From assembly GCF_055900595.2 (NCBI RefSeq), contig NZ_CM148325.1: a DNA stretch of 64,000 bases; one strand, 5' to 3'. The notes beneath the pieces are model-generated. The model was not told where the DNA came from, did no database searches, and saw only the letters and a list, made by a program, of their open reading frames with translations. This document shows positions 32,297-62,946 of this stretch, in pieces. A program made the position numbers and the translations under genes. Positions within the stretch are counted from its first letter, which is position 1; the number at the start of each line of letters is the position of its first letter.

Positions 32297-32381
32297 TAGG
32301 ATCCCCCTAGTTCTTAATCCAATAAAAAAGGGCTACTGTGTAAATAGCCCCTGTTATTAGCCCAGTGATGTAGATGGTCAT

Positions 32382-34262: not shown

Positions 34263-34369
34263 GATTCCCTCAGATTGAGATTTTTAAACCAGAAATCGAC
34301 AAATGAAATACTTAACCAGCCGTGGTTATAACCAGCGACCAGTAGCGATTTGATTTTTGATTTCATGGT

Positions 34370-35230
34370 TCACCTGTCGAAAAACACGTAGCCAGTTTTC
34401 GATACGGTGATTGCGGATGATGGTTTGGATTGTGGTTGAATGGTTTCTGGCTTTTCGTCGTTCCAGCGTTGACCGTTCAGGTAGCTCGATGGTAACAACC
34501 TGTCGAATCCGAACTGCTTACCATTCCTGCATGCGATGTCTTCTGCCAACATCGTGGCAAACTCGCTTGCCGTACCCCTGGTAGTTTTACGCCATTCCCT
34601 GAACTGTGTTCTGAATGCCGAAGCTGCGTTTTTCTTCCCGGCTTTCCGCATGCCTGCACACCAGAATATTTCCTCGAATGCCTTGTCGGTTTCTTCGTGA
34701 CGGTCAGGTGATTTTTCACACTCCGTCCGAACACTTTCGGACATAGTGTTTTTATTATTTCTTTTTTCTTTTGTAATAGTTTCTTTTGTGTGTCCCTGTT
34801 TTGGTGACAGCGCTGTCACCATTTTGGTGACACTTTTTGTCACCAATGCAGTGACATTATCACCAGAGTAGTGACACCCTTCGATTTGCCATTCCTCGAT
34901 GTTCTTGTTAGGCCCGATTTGCTGGCCTTCGCGAAGGATAACCTTCATCGCGATAAGCTCATTCTTGGCCTTGTTTACCTTCTGTCTTGGCAGCCTGGTA
35001 ATTTGAGCTAACTGACTATCAGAGATGCGATCCATCTTTTTACCGTAGCCGTATGTTTTACGGCATATGGCGTGGGCAACCTTGCTCTGATTTTTCGTTA
35101 AATCTGCGCCGATAAGCTCTTCATACAGGGCATTTGCAAGACGGGTATAACCATCTTCAACTTCTGCCACACGACGCTCCACAGGCCGTTGTGAAGGCCT
35201 TAAATGTGTTACGGTTGCAAGATTACTCAT
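34370..35230 (-). CDS. Replication initiator, lambda O-like N-terminal domain with divergent C-terminus
   Basis: [56 protein letters not shown] parallels the lambda O N-terminal domain; gene contains an iteron array. Confidence 0.75.
34793..34878. repeat. Putative replication origin iterons inside the O-like gene
   Basis: GGTGACA / TGTCACC motif alternating ~6 times (TTGGTGACAGCGCTGTCACCATTTTGGTGACACTTTTTGTCACC...) flanked by an AT-rich stretch at 34745-34790. Confidence 0.6.
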
Positions 35231-35403
35231 GACCTTTCTCCTTCTGCATCAGCTTCACTTTTTCCAACTCAGCCCGGAATCGACCAGGCTGCTTGAAGCT
35301 GGACAGGAAGCGATCACGTAGTATGTGTTTGTGAATTTTGTCCTGGTAAGGACTGAGTTGTTTTGTCATAATTACTCCTGTGGATTGATCCAGTCTTTCT
35401 ACA

Positions 35404-35682
35404 TCAGGCCTCGAAGAATTCGCCGTTCTTCGGGGCTTTTTCTTTTGTCAGCATTCTGGCTACTTTCTTAGCCAGTTCCGCCAACTCCTCGTCTTCAACA
35501 CCCCATTCAAGAACAGCCAGAAGCATTCCCATTTTTGGGATGAAGCTGTCTTTCCATCGTGAAATTTGCGATTCATTAATCCCTAACGCGTCGGCCACCT
35601 TTCGCTGACCACGTACAGCAATTCGATTTAGGATGTTGCTTGTAATTGCATTCGCTTTCTTGCGAGTACTTGTAAGTTGCAT
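35404..35682 (-). CDS. cII: cII-like transcriptional activator
   Basis: From internal [65 protein letters not shown], cII-family HTH pattern. Confidence 0.7.
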
Positions 35683-35761
35683 ATGTAAGTATTTCCTTAG
35701 ATAACAATTGATTGAATGTATGCAAATAAATGCATACACCATAGGTGTGGTTTAATTTGAT

Positions 35762-35776
35762 GCCCTTTTTCAGGGC
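35762..35776 (-). promoter_or_regulatory. nutR boxB hairpin
   Basis: Reverse strand GCCCTGAAAAAGGGC between cro and cII. Confidence 0.7.
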
Positions 35777-35801
35777 TGGGATGTGTAAGAGCGGGAATGT
35801 C

Positions 35802-37154
<1,353 letters not shown>

Positions 37155-37203
37155 TCCCCACCTCAATCTCGATAACCAAAAACAAACTATTTTTCATTTA
37201 AAA

Positions 37204-37271
37204 ACAATGGAGTTTGTTTTTCACGCCCCTTTTTACAATATTTCTTGTTTACAACATACAATCTTTCTTGT
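37204..37271. promoter_or_regulatory. Left operator oL (three 434-type sites) with pL
   Basis: ACAATGGAGTTTGT, ACAATATTTCTTGT, ACAATCTTTCTTGT upstream of N. Confidence 0.8.
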
Positions 37272-37331
37272 AATTTTAAGCCATCAGCAGGACGCACTGA
37301 CCACCATGAAGGTGAGGCTCTTAAAAATTAA

Positions 37332-37346
37332 GCCCTGAAGAAGGGC
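37332..37346 (+). promoter_or_regulatory. nutL boxB hairpin (boxA-like GCTCTTA just upstream)
   Basis: GCCCTGAAGAAGGGC preceded by GGCTCTTAAAAATTAA, as in lambda nutL. Confidence 0.8.
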
Positions 37347-37544
37347 AGCATTCAAAGCAGAAGGCTTTGGGATTGGATGAATGAGCAGGCTGATGCTCGA
37401 CCAATGTATAAACAGCGCTCATGGCAAGCAGTAACCAATCTGCGCCTCAAGACAGCGTCACTGGTAGTGCGGGCGCTCTAACCAGTAAGCCGGGGTTCAG
37501 CGCCGGCCATCCAATCACCAAAGCTAACTGACAGGAGAATCCAG

Positions 37545-37877
37545 ATGGATGCACAAACACGCCGCCGCGAACGTCGCGCAGAGAAACAGGCTCAATGGAA
37601 AGCAGCAAATCCCCTGTTGGTTGGGGTAAGCGCAAAACCAGTTAACCGCCCTATTCTCTCGCTGAATCGCAAACCGAAATCACGAGTAGAAAGCGCACTG
37701 AATCCGATAGACCTTACGGTGCTGGCTGAATACTACGAACAGATTGAAAGCAACCTGCAACGTATTGAGCGCAAGAATCAGCGCACATGGTACAGCAAGC
37801 CACGGAGTGAAATGGGTGTGACATGCTCAGGCCGCCAGAAGCAACGCGGAAAATCAATTCCGGCTTATTACGATTGA
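37545..37877 (+). CDS. N: Antiterminator N
   Basis: MDAQTRRRERRAEKQAQWKAANPLLVGVSAKPVNRPILSLNRKPKSRVESALNPIDLTVLAEY, arginine-rich motif; lambda N-like. Confidence 0.9.
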   Translation: MDAQTRRRERRAEKQAQWKAANPLLVGVSAKPVNRPILSLNRKPKSRVESALNPIDLTVLAEYYEQIESNLQRIERKNQRTWYSKPRSEMGVTCSGRQKQRGKSIPAYYD

Positions 37878-37885
37878 GGTGAGAT

Positions 37886-38137
37886 ATGGAATTTCATGAA
37901 AGTGCGATTTGTGATTTTCGCGCTAACGCAAATTCAGTAAAACCACAGCCAATTGCAGTTCTTTTTAAAACAATGGGAGCGTGGGCTGTTTTATGCTTCG
38001 CCTCTGACGACACTGATGCAAGAATGGCAATAGGCCAAGAGATGGAGATGGACCCGACAAACGATGAATTCATAATTTATGGCGCTCCATCTAATTACTT
38101 ACTTGATACCTGCAACATTTACAACAAGGCTGCCTGA
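37886..38137 (+). CDS. Hypothetical early protein (ral position)
   Basis: 83 aa ORF 8 bp after N, followed by a hairpin plus T-run terminator-like structure. Confidence 0.45.
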   Translation: MEFHESAICDFRANANSVKPQPIAVLFKTMGAWAVLCFASDDTDARMAIGQEMEMDPTNDEFIIYGAPSNYLLDTCNIYNKAA

Positions 38138-38196
38138 TGGTGGCCTTTATTTTTTTGCCGTAAATAATTTCATGATTATTACAATCAAGGTGATAT

Positions 38197-38385
38197 ATGA
38201 AACGTAAATTTGAAATTTGGTTGGATTCCGGAGCAAACATTCACTCTTGCAAAAAGACAGTTGTAACACTCGATGATCTTGGCTTATCCGAGAATGAGTG
38301 GAATGAAATGGATCAGGACGAAAAAGACGAAAACATGCGTGATGTAGCATTTGAAACGCTTGATTGGGGATGGAAGGAAATTTAA
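38197..38385 (+). CDS. Small acidic hypothetical protein
   Basis: 62 aa, very acidic (ENEWNEMDQDEKDENMRD); followed by hairpin GGCCGCATAGTCGGCC plus T-run. Confidence 0.45.
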   Translation: MKRKFEIWLDSGANIHSCKKTVVTLDDLGLSENEWNEMDQDEKDENMRDVAFETLDWGWKEI

Positions 38386-38624
38386 GTGATGGCCGCATAG
38401 TCGGCCTTTATTTTTGGCATAAACAACAGAATAAACACAGCACTGTGTATTCATTCCAACGAGTGAATACACGGAGCAATGTCGCTCGTAACTAAACAGG
38501 AGCCGACTTGTTCTGATTATTGGAAATCTTCTTTGCCCTCCGATGTGAGGGCTTTTTTATATGCATACCAATAACGCTTCACTCGAGGCGTTTTCGTTAT
38601 GCAATCAAACAGAAGGAGCATCCT

Positions 38625-38795
38625 ATGCAACAGTTCGCTATTGCAGGGGCGGCATCGGTTCGCCCTTTCAACCCGATTTTATCGGTACAGCATTCACGAA
38701 AAAATATTTTAACCGGAGCAGACTTTAAACAACCAAGAATGAAAAGTTTGCTCGAAAAGCTTTGGGATATTTTGAAACAACAAGGCCGTCCATGA
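38625..38795 (+). CDS. cIII-like small protein
   Basis: 56 aa from ATG after AGGAG: MQQFAIAGAASVRP...SLLEKLWDILKQQGRP, resembling the lambda cIII pattern. Confidence 0.5.
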   Translation: MQQFAIAGAASVRPFNPILSVQHSRKNILTGADFKQPRMKSLLEKLWDILKQQGRP

Positions 38796-38950
38796 GTTTT
38801 ACGGATAACTGGTCAGACGAAGAATTCATTCGTCAGATGAAAGAATTAATCGGTAACGAAGGAGATATTCATGTCACTTGCAACCACAGTGAAGGAGAGC
38901 AAGTTACAGAGACGCATGTACACGCAGAAAGCTCTCTGGTATCGCCATAA
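38792..38950 (+). CDS. Small hypothetical protein (start overlaps cIII-like stop)
   Basis: 52 aa MSFTDNWSDEEFIRQMKELIGNEGDIHVTCNHSEGEQ...; ATGA overlap. Confidence 0.35.
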   Translation: MSFTDNWSDEEFIRQMKELIGNEGDIHVTCNHSEGEQVTETHVHAESSLVSP

Positions 38951-39049
38951 TGGCGACCGCGAAGGAATGCGGGTATGCCTTAATTTGTCCCGAGTCGAAG
39001 TATTAAATCAGCGTTATTTCCTTGGGCCATGTCCATTCTGAGGTGATTT

Positions 39050-39757
39050 ATGGATTTGAATAAATTCGATGAGCCATTCAGCCCTGAAGATATCGAATGG
39101 CGAATACAGCAAAGCGGTAAAACACGCGATGGCAAAGTGTGGGCTATGGTGCTGGCTTATGTCACGAACCGGGCAATCATGAAACGCCTGGACGATGTTT
39201 GCGGCAAAGCAGGATGGCGCAATGAATACCGCGATATTCCCAACAACGGCGGAGTTGAATGCGGCATATCAATCAAGATTGATTCCGAATGGGTAACCAA
39301 ATGGGATGCCGCTGAAAACACGCAGGTAGAAGCCGTCAAAGGTGGTCGTTCCGGTGCAATGAAGCGCGCTGCCGTTCAGTGGGGAATCGGTCGGTATCTG
39401 TATAACCTTGAGGAAGGTTTTGCACAAACATCTCTCGATAAAAAGCAGGGATGGCACAGGGCAAAACTCAAGGATGGAACAGGATTTTACTGGCTCCCTC
39501 CATCGCTGCCGGGATGGGCAATCCCAGCATCAGATAACAAACCATCACCAGAAAATACCAACCAGAAATCTCCATCGGTTGACTGCGAACAAATCCTGAA
39601 AGACTTCAGCGATTATGCGTCAACAGAAACTGACAAGAAAAAACTCATCGAGCGTTATCAGCGTGACTGGCAATTAATGGCTGGCAACGAGGAGGCGCAG
39701 GCTAAATGCGTTCAGGTAATGAACATCAGAGTTAACGAACTAAAACAGGCGGCATAA
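39050..39757 (+). CDS. Single-strand annealing protein (Rad52/Sak-like recombinase)
   Basis: 235 aa in the recombination slot of the pL operon; architecture-based inference, not lambda Bet. Confidence 0.55.
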   Translation: MDLNKFDEPFSPEDIEWRIQQSGKTRDGKVWAMVLAYVTNRAIMKRLDDVCGKAGWRNEYRDIPNNGGVECGISIKIDSEWVTKWDAAENTQVEAVKGGRSGAMKRAAVQWGIGRYLYNLEEGFAQTSLDKKQGWHRAKLKDGTGFYWLPPSLPGWAIPASDNKPSPENTNQKSPSVDCEQILKDFSDYASTETDKKKLIERYQRDWQLMAGNEEAQAKCVQVMNIRVNELKQAA

Positions 39758-40225
39758 ATGTCTCACTTGGACGGAATTATTAAAAGATTCGAGTCCAGCT
39801 ACAAAGTTAATGAAACAACAGGTTGCTGGGAGTCTACCTATTCAAAAAACAAAGGAGGATACACAAAATTTGTAGCCTTTGGCGTAACAATGCTTTCTCA
39901 TCGGGTTGCTTTTGAGCTTTATCACTCCCCCATTCCATCTGGGAAGATGGTTTGCCACAAATGCGATAACCCATGCTGCGTTAATCCTGAACATCTCTTT
40001 TTAGGTAGCGCGCAAGAAAACATGGACGACAAGATAGCAAAAGGAAGGCATCGTGGAGCCAAGAAAGGTCATGCTCATCATGGTGCAAAATTAACAGAGT
40101 GGCAGGTTATAGAAATTAGGAAAAGACTCTCTGAAAAAGAGAGTCAGTACAAGATAGCAAAAGACATGGGTGTATCTCAATCAATTATAAGCAACATAAA
40201 AACTGGCAAGAGGTGGAGCAAATGA
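39758..40225 (+). CDS. HNH endonuclease
   Basis: 155 aa; [11 protein letters not shown]...[29 protein letters not shown]/zinc motif; inserted between annealing protein and SSB. Confidence 0.75.
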
Positions 40226-40728
40226 GTTCTCGCGGGATAAATAAGGTGATTATTCTTGGTCGGGTAGGACAAGACCCGGAAGTTCGATACTCACCATCAG
40301 GAACAGCGTTCGCTAACCTGACAATAGCCACGTCAGAACAATGGCGAGATAAAAATACTGGCGAGCAAAAGGAATTGACTGAATGGCATCGTGTTGCTGT
40401 ATCCGGGAAACTGGCTGAGGTCGTGGGGCAGTATGTGAAAAAAGGTGATCAGATTTATTTCGAGGGAATGCTGAGAACCAGAAAGTGGAAAGACCAGTCA
40501 GGGCAAGACCGTTACACAACCGAGGTTCATGTCGGAATTAATGGTGTGATGCAAATGCTTGGCGGCATTGGCGACAGCAAACAACAAGCATCCAGCAGGC
40601 AATCACAGAAGCCACAGCAGCAATCATCACCAGCACAACACAACGAACCTCCGATGGATTTTGACGACGATATACCCTTTGCACCAGTAACTCTCCCCTT
40701 CCCTCGTCACGCTATTCACGCAATTTAA
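40222..40728 (+). CDS. ssb: Single-stranded DNA-binding protein
   Basis: [48 protein letters not shown]...; OB-fold SSB signature and acidic DFDDDIPF tail motif. Confidence 0.85.
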
Positions 40729-40741
40729 TCAGGAGAAAATC

Positions 40742-41035
40742 ATGCCAGCGCCTCAGTATGGTGCGGATGACCCGCGCCGCTGTTCCGGCAATTCCGTATC
40801 GGAGGTGCTGGATAAATTCAGAAAAAACTACGACCTGATAATGTCGCTACCGCAGGAAACGAAAGAGGAAAAGGAATTTCGCCATTGTATATGGCTTGCA
40901 GAGAAAGAAGAACGCGAGCGAATTTACCAGACATCAATCCGACCATTCCGCAAAGCCACATATACCCACTTCCCTGAAATTGACCCGCGCCTGCGTAATT
41001 ACCGCTCACGCTATGGCGCTATCAGTAATGACTGA
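40742..41035 (+). CDS. Hypothetical early protein
   Basis: 97 aa ORF in operon context. Confidence 0.45.
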
Positions 41036-41045
41036 GGAATTTACC

Positions 41046-41210
41046 ATGAGAGGACTTGCATACAATCCCGGCATTCTTCCGGCAGAAATGATTATTCGCC
41101 AACGCGTAAAGCCAATGCCATCGAGAGAGGAATTGCTTAAGAGAAATTCTTTTCCATCAGTGTATCAAAACAAATATCTGAATGCAATGTGGCGGAGTGG
41201 GAAGAAATGA
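41046..41210 (+). CDS. Small hypothetical protein
   Basis: 54 aa from ATG after GAGGA; tight spacing. Confidence 0.3.
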
Positions 41211-41626
41211 AACAAATGTCACTAATTGAGATGGATGGATTTCTGAAAGGTAAATGCATCCCAAGTGATTTAAAGGTTAACGAAACAAACGCTGATTATC
41301 TGGTGCGTAAATTTGCTGAAGCGGAGGCCAAGTGCGCGGCGCTTGCGGCGGAGAATGAGCTGGCTCGTAAGGCAGTTCAGGCATTCTGCGATGTTGTTGG
41401 CGACAACACCGAGGTTATCGCTGAGGTGGTTGGGCGAGATGGCGTTCTGGTTATTTTGGAGGCCATGAAGGCAACAGGAAATATGCCAGCCACCGATGCT
41501 TTTCTGGCTGAAGTACGGGCGCAGGGTGTTGAATTGTTGCGCGAGCATCCTGCTATCCAGATTTGCTCTTTAACGCACGTATGCGACGAGTTCGCCGCCC
41601 AGCTTCGTCAGGGGGAAGCGGTATGA
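41207..41626 (+). CDS. Hypothetical early protein
   Basis: 139 aa, [16 protein letters not shown]..., overlapping starts/stops with neighbours. Confidence 0.45.
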
Positions 41627-41940
41627 GCATAGTTGATGATTCACATCTTACAGACGAAGTGGTTAACGCCGCTTTCGAAGGTACCAATTTCGGGCGCACT
41701 GATTTCCGCACCATTCTGGCAGAAACAGTTATGAAGCGTGCTGCTGGCTATCACTCTGGCTACACGGCAACGACTATCTGTATTCGCCTGGGATTGCTTG
41801 GCAAACACGATCGCCCGACAAAACTCGGCCTGACCTTCGCTTTCCATCACTACTACAGGCCATGCGTTCGCGAAGCGCTGATTTCGCATAACAGCCTTGA
41901 AGTATGGGCAAAACTTGGAGCACAGGAGTCCGCCAAATGA
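41623..41940 (+). CDS. Hypothetical early protein
   Basis: 105 aa, [20 protein letters not shown]...; ATGA overlap with upstream gene. Confidence 0.45.
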   Translation: MSIVDDSHLTDEVVNAAFEGTNFGRTDFRTILAETVMKRAAGYHSGYTATTICIRLGLLGKHDRPTKLGLTFAFHHYYRPCVREALISHNSLEVWAKLGAQESAK

Positions 41941-42224
41941 GCAACATCAACAAACAGGCGCTGATTGCAAAAATCAAAAAGCAGGCCGAAAGCTTCGACA
42001 CAGTGGTGTTGAGAGAGGATGAAGCTAACGCGCTGCTGGATGAGCTGGAAGCAGCAGAGAAGCGGATTGCTGAACTGGAAGCGCGGGAAATACTGCTCCC
42101 GGAACGTAGCAGCATGCTTCATCGAACAGATTTTCACGATGATTACCAAACGGTAATGGCATACAAAGTTTCTGAAGTCATCGATGCAATCCGCGCCGCT
42201 GGCATTCGTATCAAAGGAGAGTGA
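41937..42224 (+). CDS. Hypothetical coiled-coil protein
   Basis: 95 aa, MSNINKQALIAKIKKQAE...LDELEAAEKRIAELEAREI. Confidence 0.45.
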   Translation: MSNINKQALIAKIKKQAESFDTVVLREDEANALLDELEAAEKRIAELEAREILLPERSSMLHRTDFHDDYQTVMAYKVSEVIDAIRAAGIRIKGE

Positions 42225-42225
42225 T

Positions 42226-42447
42226 ATGGCTAACTCATTACTTGAAACCTGCAACAACTGGCAGATTCAGAGGGCGGAGATTTTATCTCGCAATCCAGAT
42301 ATGGCAATGACAATTGATAATCTGGACACGCTAATTGAACGGACCGTGCGTTCTGCAATTGATATAGCACATCGAGTGGATTGGGATTTCAGAGAAGCGG
42401 AGCGACTTGCTAAAGAGCAGGCGAAAGCAGCGGGTAAAGGAGAGTGA
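42226..42447 (+). CDS. Hypothetical early protein
   Basis: 73 aa, MANSLLETCNNWQIQRAEIL...; start within repeated AAAGGAGAGTGATATGG junction. Confidence 0.45.
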   Translation: MANSLLETCNNWQIQRAEILSRNPDMAMTIDNLDTLIERTVRSAIDIAHRVDWDFREAERLAKEQAKAAGKGE

Positions 42448-42448
42448 T

Positions 42449-42646
42449 ATGGATAAAAACACCACTGCTTACTGGAGTCTTTCACTTGATACCGAATGTC
42501 CCAAATGCGGCCACAATTTCGATCTGCTTTGCGATGCTGATTTCTGGGAATTTTCTGGAGCAAAACAGGCATGTGAAGAAATAAAAGGTTACGAAACATG
42601 CTGCCCAGAATGTAACCATGAATTTAAAACAGATTTTGTGTATTGA
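42449..42646 (+). CDS. Small zinc-ribbon protein
   Basis: 65 aa with CPKCGH...CCPECNH four-Cys motif. Confidence 0.5.
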   Translation: MDKNTTAYWSLSLDTECPKCGHNFDLLCDADFWEFSGAKQACEEIKGYETCCPECNHEFKTDFVY

Positions 42647-42656
42647 GGCATAACGA

Positions 42657-43466
42657 ATGACCACTTTTACTAAAGAACAATTAATAGAGATAATTAAGCG
42701 CAATATAACGGTTATGGATCGTTATCCTGATTTAGTAACTGCACAAATGGATCTGGAAGTATACAAAATTGCGCTGGCATCACTGGAAGCAGAACCAGTT
42801 GCTTATATTTTCAAACATCCGGCCGGGAAATTATTCTGGGCTTTAACGGATGAAAGCAATAAAGAGCAACCGGACGTTATTCCTGTTTATGCTGACTCAC
42901 CTGCGCCGGTTGTGCCGGATGAAATAGACGTAAACGATGTACCAAGGGCGGTGACATATTTCAAGACACACAGAGATTGTTACGCAGATGGCTGGAACGC
43001 CTGCCGCGCCGCCATGCTTCAGTCCGGAAACTTTCGGGAAAACAAGAATTCGTCAACCAATAATTTTCGGGAAATCGCGGAAACGTCAACCAACTATCCG
43101 GTAATTCCTAGTGAGGTGTTGTCCGCAATCCTGAAGGTTGCCAAGATTCGTGCCGATTTCGATGATTTTGACGGTGACAGGCGAGGTATCGGTGATTGTC
43201 TGGATGAGGCTGAGCAAGAGCTTATCGTTACCATTAACAAATATGCCAGTCAGTTGGCAGCAGAACCGATAGCGACTAATGACGTTCGAGAGCAAACAGC
43301 CGTTCCGCCAGTTCCTGTAATACAGGCTGATGTCGCGCAGGCAATTGAAAAACTCAAACGGAAATTAGTGGAATGCAATCGCTATAACTACTGCGCAGAT
43401 GCAGTTAAGGGCGTTGAGTATGCCTGCCACGCTGCCACGCTGCCACGCTGCCATGCTTCAGGGTAG
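42657..43466 (+). CDS. Hypothetical early protein with 8-bp tandem repeat near its 3' end
   Basis: 269 aa ORF; C-terminus encoded by CTGCCACG x3. Confidence 0.5.
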   Translation: MTTFTKEQLIEIIKRNITVMDRYPDLVTAQMDLEVYKIALASLEAEPVAYIFKHPAGKLFWALTDESNKEQPDVIPVYADSPAPVVPDEIDVNDVPRAVTYFKTHRDCYADGWNACRAAMLQSGNFRENKNSSTNNFREIAETSTNYPVIPSEVLSAILKVAKIRADFDDFDGDRRGIGDCLDEAEQELIVTINKYASQLAAEPIATNDVREQTAVPPVPVIQADVAQAIEKLKRKLVECNRYNYCADAVKGVEYACHAATLPRCHASG

Positions 43467-43857
43467 CCAACCTGTAAGCCAAACTTACAAGTTTCCAGTT
43501 AATACACCTTGCCAGGATGCGCCAGCCCATATCTGGCTGCAAACAGCTGGAGTATGGCCAGAAGATGGCGAGTTAAGCGAATTAACGTGGTGCAGCCACA
43601 ATCAGCACCATGATGACACGCTATATGTTCGAGCTGACTTGGTAAATGGCAATTCTCCGGTAACTCCGGATGGTTGGATAAGCTGTAGTGATCGAATGCC
43701 AAACGAAGAAGATGTTTTGGTTTATTGCTCAGACACTAAAGAGCAGATGGTAGGGTTTCACAAAGGTAAAGGGTTATTTCAATTCTTTTACATGAATGGT
43801 GTTGAGGGGGTATGTGAGCCGTCACACTGGATGCCGCTACCAGAGCCTCCACTTTGA
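43399..43857 (+). CDS. DUF551-like protein (overlapping ORF in another frame)
   Basis: C-terminal motif HWMPLPEPP as I recall for DUF551; true start uncertain. Confidence 0.4.
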   Translation: MQLRALSMPATLPRCHAAMLQGSQPVSQTYKFPVNTPCQDAPAHIWLQTAGVWPEDGELSELTWCSHNQHHDDTLYVRADLVNGNSPVTPDGWISCSDRMPNEEDVLVYCSDTKEQMVGFHKGKGLFQFFYMNGVEGVCEPSHWMPLPEPPL

Positions 43858-43953
43858 AAGCGAAGCTTATACATATCTTTTACATCAGCAATCTATTGTT
43901 AATCTCCAATCAATGTTACGTTGTCATCTCACTCATGCTTTGGAGGTAGTGAT

Positions 43954-44133
43954 ATGTCTTGTCCAAAATGCGGTTCTGGAAATATTGCAAAAGAAAAAAC
44001 AATGCGTGGATGGTCTGGTGATTATGTGTGCTGCGATTGCGGATACAACGACTCTAAAGACGCATTTGGAGAGCGTGGTAAAAACGAGTTTGTCAAAATT
44101 AATAAAGATCGCGAAGGCAACGGAAAAAGCTAA
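43954..44133 (+). CDS. Small zinc-ribbon protein
   Basis: 59 aa MSCPKCGSGNIAKEK...CCDCGYN; RBS GGAGG. Confidence 0.45.
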   Translation: MSCPKCGSGNIAKEKTMRGWSGDYVCCDCGYNDSKDAFGERGKNEFVKINKDREGNGKS

Positions 44134-44198
44134 TTTATTTATTCATATATGAAAACAATGTAACCAATATTCGAATTGAAGAACTGAAAGAACACCAA

Positions 44199-44220
44199 GC
44201 CGCCTGATGGCGGTTTTTTC
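44199..44220 (+). terminator. Hairpin plus T-run upstream of xis
   Basis: GCCGCCTGATGGCGG followed by TTTTTTC. Confidence 0.5.
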
Positions 44221-44246
44221 TTGCGTGTAATTGCGGAGACTTTGCG

Positions 44247-44465
44247 ATGTACTTGACACTTCAGGAGTGGAACGCACGCCAGCGACGCCCAAGAAGCCTT
44301 GAAACAGTTCGTCGATGGGTACGCGAGTGCAGGATATTCCCTCCTCCGGTTAAGGATGGAAGAGAGTATCTGTTCCACGAATCAGCGGTAAAGGTTGACT
44401 TAAATCGACCAGTAACAGGTAGCCTTTTGAAGAGGATCAGAAATGGGAAGAAGGCGAAGTCATGA
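44247..44465 (+). CDS. xis: Excisionase Xis
   Basis: 72 aa MYLTLQEWNARQRRPRSLETVRRWVRECRIFPPPVKDGREYLFHESAVKVDLNRP, lambda Xis. Confidence 0.92.
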   Translation: MYLTLQEWNARQRRPRSLETVRRWVRECRIFPPPVKDGREYLFHESAVKVDLNRPVTGSLLKRIRNGKKAKS

Positions 44466-45513
44466 GCGCCGGGATTTACCCCCTAACCTTTATATAAGAA
44501 ACAATGGATATTACTGCTACAGGGACCCAAGGACGGGTAAAGAGTTTGGATTAGGCAGAGACAGGCGAATCGCAATCACTGAAGCCATACAGGCCAACAT
44601 TGAGTTATTTTCAGGACACAAACACAAGCCTCTGACAGCGAGAATCAACAGTGATAATTCCGTTACGTTACATTCATGGCTTGATCGCTACGAAAAAATC
44701 CTGGCCAGCAGAGGAATCAAGCAGAAGACACTCATAAATTACATGAGCAAAATTAAAGCAATAAGGAGGGGTCTGCCTGATGCTCCACTTGAAGACATCA
44801 CCACAAAAGAAATTGCGGCAATGCTCAATGGATACATAGACGAGGGCAAGGCGGCGTCAGCCAAGTTAATCAGATCAACACTGAGCGATGGATTCCGAGA
44901 GGCAATAGCTGAAGGCCATATAACAACAAACCCTGTCGCTGCCACTCGCGCAGCAAAATCAGAGGTAAGGAGATCAAGACTTACGGCTGACGAATACCTG
45001 AAAATTTATCAAGCAGCAGAATCATCACCATGTTGGCTCAGACTTGCAATGGAACTGGCTGTTGTTACCGGGCAACGAGTTGGTGATTTATGCGAAATGA
45101 AGTGGTCTGATATCGTAGATGGATATCTTTATGTCGAGCAAAGCAAAACAGGCGTAAAAATTGCCATCCCAACAGCATTGCATGTTGATGCTCTCGGAAT
45201 ATCAATGAAGGAAACACTTGATAAATGCAAAGAGATTCTTGGCGGAGAAACCATAATTGCATCTACTCGTCGCGAACCGCTTTCATCCGGCACAGTATCA
45301 AGGTATTTTATGCGCGCACGAAAAGCATCAGGTCTTTCCTTCGAAGGGGATCCGCCTACCTTTCACGAGTTGCGCAGTTTGTCTGCAAGACTCTATGAGA
45401 AGCAGATAAGCGATAAGTTTGCTCAACATCTTCTCGGGCATAAGTCGGACACCATGGCATCACAGTATCGTGATGACAGAGGCAGGGAGTGGGACAAAAT
45501 TGAAATCAAATAA
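44443..45513 (+). CDS. int: Tyrosine integrase Int
   Basis: 356 aa MGRRRSHERRDLPPNLYIRNNGYYCYRDPRTGKEFGLGRDRRIAITEAIQAN...; overlaps xis; catalytic R/HxxR/Y region (HELRSL...Y); lambda Int. Confidence 0.95.
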   Translation: MGRRRSHERRDLPPNLYIRNNGYYCYRDPRTGKEFGLGRDRRIAITEAIQANIELFSGHKHKPLTARINSDNSVTLHSWLDRYEKILASRGIKQKTLINYMSKIKAIRRGLPDAPLEDITTKEIAAMLNGYIDEGKAASAKLIRSTLSDGFREAIAEGHITTNPVAATRAAKSEVRRSRLTADEYLKIYQAAESSPCWLRLAMELAVVTGQRVGDLCEMKWSDIVDGYLYVEQSKTGVKIAIPTALHVDALGISMKETLDKCKEILGGETIIASTRREPLSSGTVSRYFMRARKASGLSFEGDPPTFHELRSLSARLYEKQISDKFAQHLLGHKSDTMASQYRDDRGREWDKIEIK

Positions 45514-45647: not shown

Positions 45648-46931
45648 GTGAACACATTTTCAGTTTCCCGTCTGGCGCTGGCATTGGCTTTTGGCGTGAC
45701 GCTGACCGCCTGTAGCTCAACACCGCCCGATCAACGTCCTTCTGATCAAACCGCGCCTGGTACCTCTTCTCGCCCGATTCTGTCGGCAAAAGAAGCGCAG
45801 AATTTCGATGCTCAACACTATTTTGCGTCCCTGACGCCAGGTGCTGCAGCGTGGAATCCTTCCCCGATTACTCTGCCTGCGCAACCTGACTTTGTTGTCG
45901 GCCCGGCGGGTACTCCGGGTGTAACGCATACCACGATTCAGGCGGCGGTAGATGCGGCAATTATCAAGCGCACCAACAAGCGCCAGTATATTGCCGTGAT
46001 GCCTGGTGAGTATCAGGGAACGGTGTATGTCCCTGCTGCTCCGGGTGGAATTACTCTGTACGGTACAGGTGAAAAACCGATTGATGTGAAGATTGGGCTT
46101 TCCCTTGATGGGAGCATGAGCCCTGCCGACTGGCGTCACGACGTCAACCCGCGCGGCAAATATATGCCAGGTAAACCAGCGTGGTATATGTACGATAGCT
46201 GCCAGAGCAAACGCAGCGACAGTATCGGCGTTCTGTGTTCTGCGGTCTTCTGGTCACAAAACAACGGCCTGCAACTGCAAAACCTGACCATCGAAAACAC
46301 GCTGGGTGATAGCGTAGATGCGGGTAACCATCCGGCGGTGGCACTGCGTACTGATGGCGACAAAGTGCAGATCAATAACGTCAACATTCTCGGTCGTCAG
46401 AATACATTCTTTGTCACCAACAGTGGTGTGCAAAACCGTCTGGAAACCAACCGTCAGCCGCGTACTCTGGTGACCAACAGTTACATTGAAGGGGATGTGG
46501 ATATCGTTTCTGGTCGCGGCGCAGTGGTGTTCGATAATACCGAATTCCGCGTGGTGAACTCACGTACTCAGCAAGAAGCGTATGTGTTTGCACCGGCTAC
46601 GCTGTCTAACATCTATTACGGTTTCCTCGCCGTAAACAGCCGCTTCAATGCTTCCGGTGATGGCGTGGCGCAACTGGGCCGCTCGCTGGATGTTGATGCC
46701 AATACCAACGGTCAGGTGGTGATCCGTGATAGCGCCATCAACGAAGGTTTTAACACGGCTAAACCGTGGGCCGATGCGGTGATTTCCAATCGCCCGTTTG
46801 CGGGTAATACTGGCAACGTTGATGATAACGACGAAGTACAGCGTAATCTGAATGACACTAACTACAACCGCATGTGGGAATACAATAACCGCGGCGTGGG
46901 TAGCAAAGTGGTTGCAGAGGCGAAGAAGTAA
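45648..46931 (+). CDS. ybhC: Pectinesterase-family outer-membrane lipoprotein
   Basis: GTG start; MNTFSVSRLALALAFGVTLTACSS lipobox; 427 aa. Confidence 0.85.
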   Translation: MNTFSVSRLALALAFGVTLTACSSTPPDQRPSDQTAPGTSSRPILSAKEAQNFDAQHYFASLTPGAAAWNPSPITLPAQPDFVVGPAGTPGVTHTTIQAAVDAAIIKRTNKRQYIAVMPGEYQGTVYVPAAPGGITLYGTGEKPIDVKIGLSLDGSMSPADWRHDVNPRGKYMPGKPAWYMYDSCQSKRSDSIGVLCSAVFWSQNNGLQLQNLTIENTLGDSVDAGNHPAVALRTDGDKVQINNVNILGRQNTFFVTNSGVQNRLETNRQPRTLVTNSYIEGDVDIVSGRGAVVFDNTEFRVVNSRTQQEAYVFAPATLSNIYYGFLAVNSRFNASGDGVAQLGRSLDVDANTNGQVVIRDSAINEGFNTAKPWADAVISNRPFAGNTGNVDDNDEVQRNLNDTNYNRMWEYNNRGVGSKVVAEAKK

Positions 46932-46937: not shown

Positions 46938-47160
<223 letters not shown>

Positions 47161-47163
47161 TTT

Positions 47164-49425
47164 TTACATCTGACGGTTTTTATTGAAGTTAATCAAACTA
47201 CCCGCCTTGATAATCTCGCGCTCTTCAGCAGTCAGACTTTCCATATAGAGCGTAATCTCTGTTACCGGCGCATCTTCATGGATCACATAACCTTTAAACG
47301 TCGTCCCCGGATTATCCAGCGCCGCTTTAATGCCAGGGATGTAAATGTAATCGCCCACTTCAAAGTTCGGTGCTTCCGCCATCTGCAGCGGTAACATTCC
47401 CCAGTTGATGACGTTAGAACGGTAGCGTTTAGTCGCGTATTCCTCGGCAATATTCGCCAGACCGCCAATCACACGCTGGCAGCTCGCCGCCTGCTCACGC
47501 GCAGAACCATCGCCTGGTTTCACCGCATAGACCATGCTGCCAATTTCAGTTTGCAGCGGATCAATATGCTCCTGACCAGCAATCTGCTTAATGCGCGCAA
47601 ACACCTCTGTCAGCTCGCTGACATTGCCCGCCAGACGCTGATTTTCCAGCTCAGCAGTCGCTTTACTTCTGCCAACATAACCTGGATCGCGGCGTGACAG
47701 GGTAAACTCCGCCAAACCAATCGGATTTGAACGATAAGAAGAGGTTTCACCGGAAGGAATCAGTTCGTCGGTGGTGGTGACTTCGTCGAGGATCTTCGAG
47801 CACACTTTGAGGACGATATTGTCAGTCAGCGCCCCCAATTCCGGCCAGTCTTTAATGTTCGGTCCGTAAATCAGCGGTTGCTGGGTCGCCCCTTTCACAA
47901 AGCCCTGATAAACACGGTTTTTATACGGCGTTACATCGAAGGCGTACTCCGGCACGTTGTCCCAGCAATCGAGTTCGCTGGCAGAGGTTAAATAGCCTCC
48001 GTTTGCCGCAGTCGCAGCAATAGAACGGGCGTCCATCAACGCCACCGCTGACATCTGACCATTAGCTGGCTTAGAGCCTTCGCGGTTCGGGAAGTTACGC
48101 GTGGTGTGGCGAATACTCAAACCGTTGTTGATTGGCGTATCACCCGCACCGAAGCATGGGCCGCAGAACGCGGTTCTGATGATTGCGCCTGCGCCAATCA
48201 AATCTGCTACCATGCCTTTTTTGGCTAAATCCATAAACACCGACTGTGATGACGGATAAACCGCCAGCGAGAAGGTGTCATTGCCACAGGATTGACCGCG
48301 CAGCGCATTCGCCGCCGCGATGACGTTTTCGTAGTTACCGCCAGAACAGCCCGCGATAATCCCCTGCTGCACTTTCAGGCGACCATTTTCCACTTTATCC
48401 AGCAGCGAGAGTTTGGCTTTACCGTGCGCCACGCGCTCGGACTCAATTTCAATCTCACGCAGAATGTCAGTCAGGTTCTGGTTCAGCATGTCGATTTCAT
48501 ACACGTTGCTCGGGTGGAACGGCAGCGCAATCATTGGTTTGATGGCGCTTAAATCAACGCTGATGCAGCCATCGTAGTACGCCATCGGTTGAGGGTTAAG
48601 CTGGCAGTAATCCTGGCCGCGACCGTGCAGCGCCAGCCAGTTATGGACTTCTTCATCAGTTTGCCAGACAGAACTTAAACAGGTAGTTTCAGTGGTCATC
48701 ACGTCAACGCTGTTACGGAAATCGGTAGAGAGCGCCGCAACACCGGGACCCACGAACTCCATCACTTTGTTTTTGACGTAGCCGTTTTTGAACACGGCAC
48801 CGATGATAGCCAGCGCCACATCCTGCGGCCCCACATACGGCGCAGGTTTTCCGGTCAAATGCACCGCAACAACTCCCGGATAGTCGATATCCCAGGTGTC
48901 ATTAAGCAGCTGTTTTACCAACTCACCGCCACCCTCACCGACTGCCATTGTCCCTAATGCACCGTAACGGGTGTGGCTGTCTGACCCGAGGATCATTTTG
49001 CCGCCGCCTGCCATCATCTCACGCATATATTGATGGATGACCGCAATATGTGGAGGCACAAAAATACCGCCATAACGCTGCGCTGCCGATAAACCAAAAA
49101 CATGGTCATCACCGTTAATGGTGCCGCCGACGGCGCAGAGTGAGTTATGGCAGTTGGTCAGCACATACGGCAGCGGGAAACGTTCCATACCGGACGCTTT
49201 AGCGGTCTGTACAATACCAACAAAGGTAATATCGTGAGAGGCTAATGAATCAAACTTAATTTTAAGTTTATCCATATTTCCGGACGTATTATGAGAAGAG
49301 AGAATAGACCAGGCAATAGTGCCTTTTTTTGCTTCTTCTTTTTTAATTTCGCCGGTGAAATGTTCTTCGGCAATTATTTCGTTATTACTGGCGAGAAACA
49401 CGCCTTTTTCAGATAACTTGATCAT
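47164..49425 (-). CDS. ybhJ: Aconitase-family protein
   Basis: ~753 aa from internal [11 protein letters not shown]; aconitase-like Cys residues; position as in K-12. Confidence 0.8.
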
Positions 49426-49607
49426 CAAATGCTCCAGATATCTGCGCACCGTTAAGTACGCAGAAAGATAATAAATGGATATACTCTAAATAATTCGAGT
49501 TGCAGGAAGGCGGCAAGCGAGTGAATCCCCAGGAGCTTACATAAGTAAGTGACTGGGGTGAGCGAACGCAGACGCAGCACATGCAACTTGAAGTATGACG
49601 AGTATAT

Positions 49608-51041
49608 TTACAGCATGTTCCAGCCGATCAGCATATTCCACCACCACACGCCGAGGGTGATATGTACCAGGAAGGTTAATATCGTCAGTACCGCACCGAC
49701 TAACCACCAGGATTTAATATCGTTATAGCCTACGCCGAAGATGACCGGACCTGCCGCACCGCCATAGTGAGTAACCATGCCGCCATAGGAGTTGGAGAAA
49801 AGCAGCGCCAGCGCAGTTAACATTAACGGTGCGCCGGAGACGTTCGCCAGCATGGCAAATACCGGTAACATGGCAACGATATAGGCACTACCGGAAGCAA
49901 AGAAATAACGCACGATGATGCTAAGGAAAATAATAACGAAGAAAGCTACGTTACCATGACCGTCAAATGCCAGGTTATTTTTAAAGACTTCAGCTAACCA
50001 TTCGAAGAATTTAACTTTCGATAATAAGGAGCTTAAGCCGATAATACCGCCGTACCAGATTAAGGTATTCCAGCCGCCTTTATTTTTCACCACGTCTTCC
50101 CAGGTAACGATCCCCAGCAGCAGCATGGTCGCCATAACAACGATTGCCACAGTGGATTCATCTACCCCGAGCGTTTTACTGAAAATCCAGCCCAACAGCG
50201 CCAGCACAAAGACACCGAGCAGCATTTTTTCGCGGATTTTCATCGGCCCCAGTTCAGCAAGGCCCGCTTTGGCGATAGTTTTGTTATCCACTTTCTTAAT
50301 TTCTGGCGGATACATGGTGTAAATCACCAGCGGAGTGACCAGCAGCATAATGATGCCCGGTAAACCAGCGGCCAGTGCCCATCCACCCCAGCTAATTTGC
50401 AGGTGCAGAATGTCGTTGATCATTTTCAGCGCCAGAATGTTCCCCGCCATTGCGGTAAAGAACATATAGCTGGTGGTTTTGGTGACCATGTAAATGGACA
50501 TCATCAGGTAATGTCCGACACGACGCGGGCTTTTTTCAGGTTCTGACCCCAAAGCCACCGCCACGCTGTTGATGATCGGTAACACAATGCCGCCCGCACG
50601 CGCGGTGTTAGACGGTGTTGCCGGAGCCAGTACCAGATCGAGGAATACCGTAACGTAACCCAGCCCCAGCGTGGTGTTACCGATTTTACCAATCAGCAGA
50701 TAGGCTATACGTTTGCCTAAGCCGGTGGTCACAAATGCGGCGCTTAAGGTAAACGCCGAGAACACCAGCCAGGTGGTACCTGAAGAGTAACCGCTTAATA
50801 CGGCGGTAGTCTTAAATGCACCAGCGGATAAATTACCGACCACCACCATTGAGGCAGCAACGGCAATTAACAGTACGACAGGTTCCGGGAAAGGCTTGAT
50901 AACCAGCCCGACGATTGCTGCCAGGTAAATACCAAAAAGCACCCACGCCAGTTCGCTTAATCCTGCCGGAGCTGGCATAAAGCCAATAATACATGGGATC
51001 GCTAATATCAGAATTAGCTTCCATAACGATTTTTTATTCAT
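49608..51041 (-). CDS. ybhI: Anion transporter (DASS family)
   Basis: 477 aa multi-pass membrane protein. Confidence 0.8.
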   Translation of the reverse strand: MNKKSLWKLILILAIPCIIGFMPAPAGLSELAWVLFGIYLAAIVGLVIKPFPEPVVLLIAVAASMVVVGNLSAGAFKTTAVLSGYSSGTTWLVFSAFTLSAAFVTTGLGKRIAYLLIGKIGNTTLGLGYVTVFLDLVLAPATPSNTARAGGIVLPIINSVAVALGSEPEKSPRRVGHYLMMSIYMVTKTTSYMFFTAMAGNILALKMINDILHLQISWGGWALAAGLPGIIMLLVTPLVIYTMYPPEIKKVDNKTIAKAGLAELGPMKIREKMLLGVFVLALLGWIFSKTLGVDESTVAIVVMATMLLLGIVTWEDVVKNKGGWNTLIWYGGIIGLSSLLSKVKFFEWLAEVFKNNLAFDGHGNVAFFVIIFLSIIVRYFFASGSAYIVAMLPVFAMLANVSGAPLMLTALALLFSNSYGGMVTHYGGAAGPVIFGVGYNDIKSWWLVGAVLTILTFLVHITLGVWWWNMLIGWNML

Positions 51042-51115
51042 TTAAAATCCTGTTCTTTCTGTATGACTTATACAGAAGTCCTTTGTTAATTGCCCTTATC
51101 ACGACAACGACCTTT

Positions 51116-52168
51116 TCAGGGAAGATAAACTTCACCGGAAAATATTTTTCTGGTCGTCCGAATAACAGATGCGCGTAAGGTTGTGGCATCCTGACCTTCA
51201 TTGCTTAAATGAACGTCGAGCGCACCACTGGGATGTTCAATATTGATATTGCCATATCCTACAGAAGGGACGATTTGTCGGGTGACGGTGCCTTCCAATG
51301 CACAACTACTGGAAATGGCAATAGCACCGGTTATCGCCAGCGCACGATGGCAGGAGTGCGGCATAAAATAACGCACATTAATTGCCCCGCCTTTCTGTGC
51401 TGGAGAAATAAGCACAGGCTTAGGGATAACCATATTACTGACATCACCTAAGCCCATTGCTTTACCCGCTTGTAGGCGGATAGATTCAATGCGGGCTAAT
51501 AATGTTTTGTCGGCATCCAGTTCCGCCGGTAATTCATAGCCTGTTTTACCCAAATAATCAGCCGGAATAATGACGACTGGCATCGCCATATCGATACAAG
51601 TCACTGGAACATCGTCAAAATAATCGATCTGATTATCAGTCGGGAAAACTTTTCCGGTTTTGGTTCCAGCGGCATTCAGGAAAGTGAGCGCAACCGGTGC
51701 GGCAGTACCCGGTACGCCGTCAATTCTGGTGCTACCCTCGTACTCGACAACACCATTTGGCGTTTGCACATCAGCTTCGATGAACGTACCCGTATTGACG
51801 TTGCGGATACGTACGCGGGTAACTGGCGAAGTCGCTGCAATCAAACCATTTTCAATGGCGAATGCCCCAACGCCAGACAGCATATTGCCGCAGTTAGGTG
51901 TAGTGTCGACACGTTGCTCATGGACGATAACCTGAGCAAACAGATAATCGACGTCAGCACGCGGATCGCTGGAACGGCTAATTATGGCGACTTTACTGGT
52001 CAGCGGATTACCGCCGCCAATACCGTCAATTTCCAGATCGTTACCGGAACCCATAATTGCCATCAATATTTTATCGCGCTGCGTTTGATCTTCGGGTAGA
52101 TGTTCCGCTAACAGGAACGCGCCCCTCGAGGTTCCACCTCGCATCATCACGCAGGGTATTTTTTTCAT
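51116..52168 (-). CDS. ybhH: PrpF-family isomerase
   Basis: 350 aa MKKIPCVMMRGGTSRGAFL. Confidence 0.8.
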   Translation of the reverse strand: MKKIPCVMMRGGTSRGAFLLAEHLPEDQTQRDKILMAIMGSGNDLEIDGIGGGNPLTSKVAIISRSSDPRADVDYLFAQVIVHEQRVDTTPNCGNMLSGVGAFAIENGLIAATSPVTRVRIRNVNTGTFIEADVQTPNGVVEYEGSTRIDGVPGTAAPVALTFLNAAGTKTGKVFPTDNQIDYFDDVPVTCIDMAMPVVIIPADYLGKTGYELPAELDADKTLLARIESIRLQAGKAMGLGDVSNMVIPKPVLISPAQKGGAINVRYFMPHSCHRALAITGAIAISSSCALEGTVTRQIVPSVGYGNINIEHPSGALDVHLSNEGQDATTLRASVIRTTRKIFSGEVYLP

Positions 52169-52351
52169 AATAATGCCCTCAATTTAAAAACATAACTTAT
52201 TGCGATATGGTTACATTAAGGGCAAAGCATCTCTAATGACTTTAGCTCAACGATTAATAACATTTTTTCATTAATTTAAGTTGGCTAAATGCAGTTAAAA
52301 TTTTTAACGGCCTGTCATCCAAAATCGTCGCATCCATTTTTCGGAGTAATA

Positions 52352-53305
52352 ATGAAGCATGAATTATCAAGTATGAAGGCATTTGTCATACTGGCAGAGT
52401 CCAGTTCATTTAACAATGCTGCTAAATTACTCAATATTACGCAACCTGCATTAACGCGAAGAATAAAAAAGATGGAAGAGGATTTACATATTCAACTATT
52501 TGAGCGTACAACTCGCAAGGTTACGTTAACAAAAGCAGGAAAAAGGTTGCTCCCGGAGGCACGGGAATTAATAAAGAAATTCGATGAAACGCTTTTTAAT
52601 ATTCGTGATATGAATGCTTATCATCGTGGTATGGTGACGTTAGCGTGTATTCCGACCGCAGTATTTTATTTTTTACCACTGGCAATCGGTAAATTTAATG
52701 AGCTGTATCCCAATATTAAAGTGCGGATTCTGGAACAAGGCACGAATAATTGCATGGAATCGGTGCTGTGTAACGAATCAGACTTTGGCATAAACATGAA
52801 CAACGTCACAAATTCATCCATTGATTTTACCCCACTGGTCAACGAGCCGTTTGTGCTGGCCTGTCGGCGTGACCACCCATTAGCCAAAAAGCAGCTTGTA
52901 GAATGGCAGGAGTTAGTAGGTTACAAAATGATTGGCGTACGCTCCTCCCGCGGCAACCGACTGCTGATAGAACAGCAACTGGCCGACAAGCCCTGGAAGC
53001 TGGATTGGTTTTACGAAGTGCGTCATCTTTCGACGTCGTTAGGACTGGTAGAGGCGGGACTGGGGATTTCAGCGCTTCCTGGTCTTGCAATGCCCCATGC
53101 GCCCTATTCTTCCATTATTGGTATCCCGCTGGTGGAACCCGTTATACGTCGGACATTGGGGATTATTCGCCGCAAAGATGCCGTACTTTCTCCGGCTGCA
53201 GAACGCTTTTTTGCCTTGCTGATTAATTTATGGACCGACGATAAAGACAACTTGTGGACCAATATCGTCGAACGCCAGAGACATGCGTTACAGGAGATAG
53301 GTTAA
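52352..53305 (+). CDS. ybhD: LysR-family transcriptional regulator
   Basis: From internal ATG MKHELSSMKAFVILAESSSFNNAAKLLNITQPALTRRIKKMEEDL (HTH); divergent from ybhH. Confidence 0.8.
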   Translation: MKHELSSMKAFVILAESSSFNNAAKLLNITQPALTRRIKKMEEDLHIQLFERTTRKVTLTKAGKRLLPEARELIKKFDETLFNIRDMNAYHRGMVTLACIPTAVFYFLPLAIGKFNELYPNIKVRILEQGTNNCMESVLCNESDFGINMNNVTNSSIDFTPLVNEPFVLACRRDHPLAKKQLVEWQELVGYKMIGVRSSRGNRLLIEQQLADKPWKLDWFYEVRHLSTSLGLVEAGLGISALPGLAMPHAPYSSIIGIPLVEPVIRRTLGIIRRKDAVLSPAAERFFALLINLWTDDKDNLWTNIVERQRHALQEIG

Positions 53306-53345
53306 TACTCCGGCGCAGGAGAGACTGCGCCGGGTGAATCAGCGG

Positions 53346-54377
<1,032 letters not shown>

Positions 54378-54495
54378 CTAAAATTAGTCGCTTTTGGCGG
54401 TGAATGCTGAATTAAAACGCAGAATTTTGTCCGATAGTGGTATCGGTGTACCATTCGCGCAGACGAAAATTCTTAACCTTAATCTGGAATACGCC

Positions 54496-56373: not shown

Positions 56374-56375
56374 GA

Positions 56376-57838: not shown

Positions 57839-57857
57839 TGGTAACCCCTTAATGTGA

Positions 57858-58003: not shown

Positions 58004-58171
<168 letters not shown>

Positions 58172-61887: not shown

Positions 61888-61896
61888 GGAACGACC

Positions 61897-62943: not shown

Positions 62944-62946
62944 GTA

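Follow-up and report, generated by a model that had tools for sequence, protein, structure and literature searches.

How should one read two overlapping open reading frames whose junction is occupied by a tandem octanucleotide repeat: as two genes, as one gene that switches between a fused and a split form, or as one gene that has lost its frame? The locus that raises this question lies in the 64,000-nucleotide stretch of DNA analyzed here, which we call the window. An upstream ORF of 269 amino acids (42657..43466, + strand), with GAGG 8 nt before its ATG, overlaps a downstream ORF of 152 amino acids in the +1 frame (43399..43857, + strand). The tract itself (43424..43455, + strand) reads, in the letters of the window, as three perfect copies of CTGCCACG (43424-43447) followed by one degenerate copy, CTGCCATG (43448-43455), and is referred to below as n = 4; relatives vary in copy number. 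A preliminary description had reported a threefold repeat with a degenerate fourth copy at the junction of these two ORFs, and both the repeat and the ORFs are present as it had them. Tandem Repeats Finder places the array at 43424-43457 (period 8, 4.2 copies, 96% matches, score 61), and it is the sole array in the 64-kb window with a period of at least 4 and more than 3.4 copies. By our own arithmetic (64000 x 0.25^22), about 4e-9 exact period-8 identity runs of 22 bases would be expected by chance in a window of this size. The 8-mer CTGCCACG is not unusually common in the window (5 matches versus 2.3 expected), and three of the five matches are the tandem units.

The repeat unit, at 8 bp, is not divisible by three, and it lies inside an ORF between two domains. 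Translated in silico, variants with n = 2, 5 and 8 give a single ORF of 394, 402 and 410 amino acids, respectively, and those with n = 1, 3, 4, 6 and 7 give split ORFs; each addition of three units, as in the n = 5 and n = 8 alleles, inserts ATLPRCHA into the linker. At n = 4, the upstream ORF, which carries two N-terminal modules, keeps the N-terminal 258 residues and then runs on for 11 altered residues (ATLPRCHASG-stop) that replace AMLQGSQ..., so that the predicted product ends in ...CHAATLPRCHASG*. The TAG that ends it (43464..43466, + strand) is brought into the frame of the upstream ORF by the n = 4 register, as it is at n = 1 and 7, and is out of frame at n = 2, 5 and 8. The remainder is still open from an ATG at 43399, 43420 or 43453. 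The second of these has AAGGG 8 nt upstream (43407-43411) and is the start chosen by PGAP in strain 90-1; the third, which is the M of AAMLQ and lies within the last repeat unit, is the usual PGAP start. The frame arithmetic of the preliminary description, by which gain of one copy or loss of two would fuse the ORFs, proved right both in silico and in natural alleles (n = 5 and n = 2). A stop codon in the would-be fused frame, which would have spoken against fusion, is absent from the translations at n = 2, 5 and 8. The naming of the downstream ORF as DUF551-like is likewise borne out by a Pfam match to DUF551 (PF04448, E = 6.9e-18) at 43672..43851 (+ strand), which covers residues 334-393 of the fused protein and positions 1-67 of the 68 in the model.

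Which of the two forms is the normal one? An exact scan of IMG/VR for CTGCCACGCTGCCATGCTTCAG returned 51 loci, with n = 2 in 51/51, and n = 2 is also the state of about 224 of the 229 complete E. coli genomes that hold the joint together with the right flank of the window (~98%). At n = 2 the joint reads TAT GCC TGC CAC GCT GCC ATG CTT CAG GGT, encoding Y-A-C-H-A-A-M-L-Q-G, and the frame is continuous from 42657 to 43857. When the corresponding two-unit fusion was built in silico and compared with 5.8 billion protein clusters, more than 100 full-length relatives of 390-427 amino acids were found, mostly named "DUF551 domain-containing protein," one of which (cluster P0001) has 394 amino acids and is 99% identical. 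Among the best 120 clusters, CHAAMLQG occurs in 117, one ATLPRCHA insert (n = 5) in two and two inserts (n = 8) in one. The two units of this ground state, CTGCCACG and CTGCCATG, are adjacent 8-mers that are 7/8 identical and encode C-H-A-A-M, and the ground-state "repeat" is a 7/8 direct repeat arising from these codons. Judged by its homologues, then, the split form in the window is derived and rare, the usual state of the gene being a single ORF of ~394 amino acids.

We take the fused ORF to be the real gene because it is conserved, despite the fact that PGAP does not annotate it. In genomes with n = 2 and n = 5, PGAP instead calls a short DUF551 protein (MLQGSQ...) from the ATG in the last unit, along with a fragment labeled "DUF551 pseudo, incomplete." It seems that mosaic protein evidence causes the gene model to be broken up, which masks fused and frameshifted alleles alike. 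We also note that PGAP misses the intact ORF in two in-frame genomes, of 402 amino acids in L001 (EC332; 1849-2709) and of 397 amino acids in L003 (pCombat11I9-3; 1849-2691).

Relatives of the gene are annotated as EaA, ea22 or DUF551. In a Pfam scan of the 394-residue fused protein, DUF551 was the only match and the Ead_Ea22 signature (PF13935 / IPR025153) was absent; PF13935 is present in upstream neighbor genes of related elements. Because this signature is missing, we describe the protein as an exo-xis-region DUF551/EaA-like protein and not as a member of the Ea22 family. The upstream ORF matches two PHROG families, phrog_5117 (amino acids 1-123) and phrog_14306 (amino acids 111-265), both of unknown function. 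An AlphaFold2 model of the fused protein, made with a 40-sequence alignment, was poor (mean pLDDT 40.8, pTM 0.27). A role in defense or anti-defense was considered and set aside, as PADLOC returned no matches and NCBIfam a single meaningless match below threshold.

The tract gene, on the + strand, lies directly upstream of a small zinc-ribbon ORF, which is followed by lambda-type xis (44247-44465, + strand), lambda-type int (44443-45513, + strand) and the chromosomal gene ybhC (45648-46931). In the twin prophage of strain EC332, the order is N, a Rad52-type recombinase, HNH, ssb, anti-RecBCD, DUF2737, small ORFs, an Ead/Ea22-like fragment, the tract gene, Eag, xis, int and ybhC. The tract gene thus belongs to the accessory region known as "exo-xis," on the early-left side of a lambdoid prophage that occupies the lambda attachment site. 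With an identical joint, it is also found in P1/P7-like plasmid prophages of 90-115 kb (Upf89.5 of phage P7). Some other features of the neighborhood may be recorded here. A terminator-like hairpin (44197-44216; 8-bp stem with 5 GC pairs, followed by a T-run) separates the zinc-ribbon (Eag/Lar-like) ORF at 43921-44133 from xis. About 2.8 kb upstream of the tract, in the same exo-xis region, are two more short tandem arrays, at 40593-40634 (22-bp unit, 1.9 copies) and 40707-40725 (9-bp unit, 2.1 copies). Just downstream of ybhC, a 92-bp unit is present in 2.1 copies (46947-47141, 96% matches) and contains GCCGGATGCGGCGTAAACGCCTTATCCGGCCTAC; we take it to resemble a chromosomal REP/BIME cluster.

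What kind of place within the gene is the joint? The upstream ORF contains a second C-x-A-A-M-L-Q joint at 42999..43022 (+ strand), where GCCTGCCGCGCCGCCATGCTTCAG encodes ACRAAMLQ within the peptide motif ACRAAMLQSG. Its DNA is nearly the same as that of the tract joint, but its two 8-mers match at 5/8 positions, and it is unexpanded. Hundreds of prophages and phages give BLAST matches that start or stop at these two joints (query positions ~330 and ~772-785), and many matches to other phages begin at the one at 42999-43022. In IMG/VR, the 16-bp core of the tract joint is bordered by at least 5 different left flanks and 4 different right flanks, combined in all ways; with one of the right-flank types, the protein stops a few codons later and the next gene follows. 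Ea22-type genes of the exo-xis region are described as mosaic, and DUF551 is one of several exchangeable C-terminal domains (PMC10834534). At a further locus, L005, the left flank of the 42999-43022 joint is joined straight to the DUF551 part; the middle module (~amino acids 124-258) can thus be lost or gained by recombination between the two joints.

How often, and in what forms, is the tract expanded? A 34-nt probe that matches only tracts of at least 3 units hit 5 of 5,426 complete E. coli genomes, namely two P1-like plasmids (n = 3), strain 90-1 (n = 4) and strains EC332 and 20AR1039 (n = 5), as well as 1 of 72,556 PLSDB plasmids. Relative to the ~229 complete E. coli genomes with the joint and the right flank, this amounts to expansion in ~2% of carriers. 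Variants built in silico from the window's own modules were also sought by exact look-up. The n = 3 truncated protein was found in 9 contigs, in a P1-like context; the n = 4 protein in 2 contigs; and the n = 5 fused protein of 402 amino acids in 12 contigs, in the same attachment-site prophage, while the exact n = 1, 6, 7 and 8 forms from these modules were not found by this look-up. The protein of the window's upstream ORF is, as an exact match, also present in public assemblies. Among cluster mates, there are at least 10 further n = 5 proteins that differ in their N- or C-terminal modules, one of them from Salmonella Virchow, and 5 contigs with the n = 4 form of the 90-1 type. At the nucleotide level, n = 4 occurs in the window, in strain 90-1, in GCA_050484865.1 and in one Logan contig, and an n = 8 allele (P0047/L190) lies on a 95-kb P1-like contig. 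The expanded alleles amount, in a rough tally of contigs that are not phylogenetically independent, to ~25 in frame and 19 out of frame.

Joints written in other codons behave differently in this survey. Those of the form CTGCCGCG-CCGCCATG, as in phage 29485 and at 42999-43022, and that of the form CTGCCGCG-CTGCCATG, as in strain 201609, were never expanded in the data seen. Two candidates for three-unit variants, H166 (Salmonella phage 29485) and H86, were discarded on inspection, as both have unexpanded joints in a different codon version. A metagenome scan with the 22-nt CTGCCACGCTGCCACGCTGCCA gave at least 120 loci, and CTTCAG or ATGC flanks occurred in none among the matches listed; the pattern is unspecific in GC-rich environmental DNA. 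An artificial 80-residue query with three ATLPRCHA inserts gave 100 candidates, none with inserts, from a word index that is ill-suited to such queries. The Logan contig (L179; SRR22575581, P1-like) differs from the other n = 4 tracts in having a perfect fourth CTGCCACG in place of CTGCCATG (3319-3350; CACG for CATG). The change is synonymous in the frame of the upstream ORF, but in the DUF551 frame it abolishes the ATG (M of AAMLQ); slippage, conversion or an assembly error may account for it.

Does copy number change faster than the sequence around it? The prophage in the window (30563-44890, 14.3 kb) is identical to that of EC332 but for one 8-bp unit (4 versus 5), while the chromosome beyond ybhC toward the gal side (47161-63998) is only 95.8% identical to EC332. 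Because 14.3 kb of prophage is identical apart from this unit while the chromosomal flank is not, one and the same prophage has recently entered E. coli backgrounds that are clearly divergent, or has moved between them. Elsewhere in the same comparison, a block of ~1.6 kb in the nin/Q-side region (28880-30484) falls in a gap between BLAST segments and stays unaligned to the EC332 prophage, which is nearly identical in other parts; presumably a mosaic module has been replaced there. Other pairs of elements repeat the pattern at the tract. Loci L178 (n = 4) and L187 (n = 5) agree at every position of 1341 + 3000 nt of flank, part of which is chromosomal; 2 + 4 differences in 3000 + 3000 nt separate L183 (n = 3) from L190 (n = 8); L179 (n = 4) and L190 differ at 2 of 3000 left-flank positions; and the left flanks of L003 (n = 2) and L181 (n = 3) are identical over 2217 nt. 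Among P1-like plasmids whose flanks are almost the same, tracts of 3, 4 and 8 units occur.

Barring transfer of the tract by recombination at the joint, at least 5 copy-number changes would be needed, by our count, to account for these pairs. Within the 14.3 kb, changes in the tract are no fewer than all point mutations combined; taken with the standard base-substitution rate of E. coli, this suggests that the locus changes at 1e-6 per generation or more, as an order-of-magnitude estimate only. The number of independent slippage events is uncertain because the tract lies at a mosaic joint, where recombination could have carried one expanded tract among backgrounds. Copy-number differences between otherwise identical elements are nonetheless the signature of slipped-strand mispairing, and on these comparisons we regard the tract as a real frame-toggling hotspot. 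The preliminary description had likened the locus to slipped-strand phase-variable genes and had suggested that fused and split forms be sought among homologous prophages. Both forms exist, n = 2, 5 and 8 being fused and n = 3 and 4 split. The geometry of that comparison stands, as do the natural fused and split forms and the copy-number differences between otherwise identical elements. Phase variation in the strict sense would further call for frequent, reversible switching inside a clone. What does not stand is the choice of the split form as the starting point, since that form is uncommon and derived. A fixed split arrangement shared by relatives, which would have counted against the idea, is not seen, most relatives having n = 2 and a single ORF.

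We consider it likely that the two overlapping ORFs are halves of one mosaic gene of ~394 amino acids, and that growth of an octanucleotide tract prone to slippage has shifted them out of register. In its normal form, the gene encodes a DUF551 domain at the C-terminal end, preceded by two other modules. At its C-H-A-A-M-L-Q joint, the choice of codons (TGC CAC GCT GCC ATG) would by accident create the 7/8 direct repeat, on which replication slippage (slipped-strand mispairing) may now and then add units. Once at least 3 perfect units are present, further slippage would make the tract unstable, as in the relatives at 3, 4, 5 and 8. A dependence of slippage on repeat identity fits the finding that alternative-codon joints are unexpanded. 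Alleles with n = 2, 5 and 8 would produce the fused protein; in the other registers, the N-terminal part would be cut soon after the tract and DUF551 left as a separate overlapping ORF. The n = 4 allele of the window most probably reflects loss of one unit from the n = 5 allele, which is commoner in that prophage, the direction from 5 to 4 being the more parsimonious one given the allele counts. The n = 5 allele, in turn, would have had to arise through out-of-frame intermediates or a multi-unit slip; if so, either OFF states were tolerated for a time or restoration of the frame was favored. By analogy with lambda Ea22, of which the C-terminal domain alone lacks the activity of the full protein (PMC10834534), the split probably inactivates the protein or alters its function.

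If the tract changes this readily, is it a switch that has been kept for switching? Under this reading it would be a working contingency locus of temperate coliphages, both lambdoid and P1-like plasmid prophages, in which high-frequency reversible change between the fused (ON) and split (OFF) forms of an early-expressed protein of the exo-xis region generates mixed populations of lysogens or virions and is retained for the benefit of phage or lysogen, for example as bet-hedging on the lysis-lysogeny decision or on interaction with the host. The position of a unit that is not a multiple of 3 inside an ORF and between two domains is what such a locus would have, and the tract reaches the 3 units used as a published screening threshold for SSRs with units of at least 4 nt (PMC7383803). 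ON alleles (n = 5, 8) and OFF alleles (n = 3, 4) occur naturally in near-identical elements, restoration of the frame has taken place in reaching n = 5, and in-frame and out-of-frame contigs number ~25 and 19 among expanded alleles, a count weakened by their lack of phylogenetic independence. However, a selected switch would be expected to keep long tracts widely, and ~98% of carriers have the unexpanded, imperfect n = 2 form; where expanded, tracts are short, at 3-8 units. The short tract and the unexpanded state of ~98% of homologues argue against a locus that evolved for switching. SSR contingency loci are, to our knowledge, not a known feature of E. coli. We therefore think it unlikely that the tract is a contingency locus in this sense, and we favor the disrupted mosaic gene.

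The split could also be bridged during translation, the repeat itself being of little consequence, either by programmed +1 frameshifting at the end of the upstream ORF or by expression of the DUF551 ORF through translational coupling or restart. The upstream ORF ends GGG TAG C, and a slip from GGG to GGU would keep glycine and enter the DUF551 frame at GSQPVSQ; for restart, the ATG at 43420, with its AAGGG and its use by PGAP in strain 90-1, would be a candidate site. However, the predicted fold of 43380-43500 is no better than that of shuffled sequences (z = 0.01), there is no Shine-Dalgarno-like stimulator beside the shift site, and the stop and overlap are confined to the rare n = 1/4/7 register, most homologues having a single ORF. 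Because this register is rare and unconserved, the site could not be selected as a recoding signal, and we rate the regeneration of GSQPVSQ by a GGG-TAG slip as a coincidence of the n = 4 register. Programmed frameshifting and a special RNA structure were both rejected on these grounds, and recoding or restart seems to us a very improbable account of the locus. An internal promoter for the downstream ORF was also rejected, promoter-like sites being no more frequent than expected from shuffles. Least probable of all is that the four-unit call is a sequencing or assembly artifact and the true tract is in frame. Some long-read assemblers do miscount short tandem repeats, but a 32-bp tract of 8-bp units is well within the read length of any platform, n = 4 was recovered independently in the complete genome of 90-1, the draft GCA_050484865.1 and the Logan assembly, and n = 3, 5 and 8 likewise occur across several independent assemblies.

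How does a mosaic gene with a slippage-prone joint compare with known systems? SSR contingency loci are exemplified by the tetranucleotide tracts of H. influenzae and the pentanucleotide tracts of Neisseria opa, which typically have at least 10 units. Like these, the present tract is a coding repeat with a non-triplet unit; changes in its copy number shift the frame, and both ON and OFF alleles occur in close relatives. It differs in having 3-8 units of 8 bp, in that ~98% of its homologues are unexpanded (n = 2), and in being carried in an E. coli host by a temperate phage or P1-like plasmid. Stated by the features of SSR loci, it has a non-triplet unit repeated within a coding sequence and copy-number variation that yields both frames, and it lacks a long tract kept across homologues (n = 2 in 51/51 IMG/VR loci and in 117/120 of the best clusters). 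The SSRs of Type I hsdS genes also lie in the linker between two domains, with one register encoding a two-domain protein and the others only an N-terminal part (PMC7383803). That family is unrelated, however, and here the C-terminal domain stays intact in an overlapping ORF that may use its own starts. The same study found that many short tracts show no length variation between strains and are probably not phase-variable (PMC7383803).

Closer in setting are the mosaic Ea22/EaA proteins, among them Ea22_V2 with a C-terminal DUF551 domain (PMC10834534), which share with the tract protein a place in the early-left operon upstream of xis-int and a modular N-terminal part joined to an exchangeable C-terminal domain; the tract protein differs in lacking the Pfam Ead_Ea22 signature PF13935. 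In the literature searched, whose coverage is incomplete, we found no report of repeat-mediated splitting of DUF551 or Ea22-type genes. Contingency loci of T2/T4 and other lytic phages resemble the tract in that polymerase slippage produces reversible frameshifts in phage genes, for which bet-hedging has been proposed (bioRxiv 10.1101/2025.10.21.683753). Those loci are homopolymers of at least 6 bp in virulent phages, with measured population heterogeneity, whereas the present tract is an octanucleotide repeat in temperate elements and the evidence for it is comparative. The tract is a fresh instance of a known mechanism in an unusual combination of host and element.

Some consequences would hold whether or not the gene switches. 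Automated annotation breaks up this mosaic gene and conceals both the fused ORF and its frameshift alleles. The short, conserved C-x-A-A-M-L-Q joint would be a site of module shuffling and, in one codon version, a hotspot of slippage. SSR-type switches are not a known trait of either E. coli or this class of element, and if switching is appreciable, the tract would be a natural ON/OFF switch of this type in E. coli temperate phages. Finally, Ea22 and its neighbors, the products of the exo-xis region, influence whether lambda and Shiga-toxin phages enter lysis or lysogeny (PMC10834534), and switching, if real, would act on a gene of that very region.
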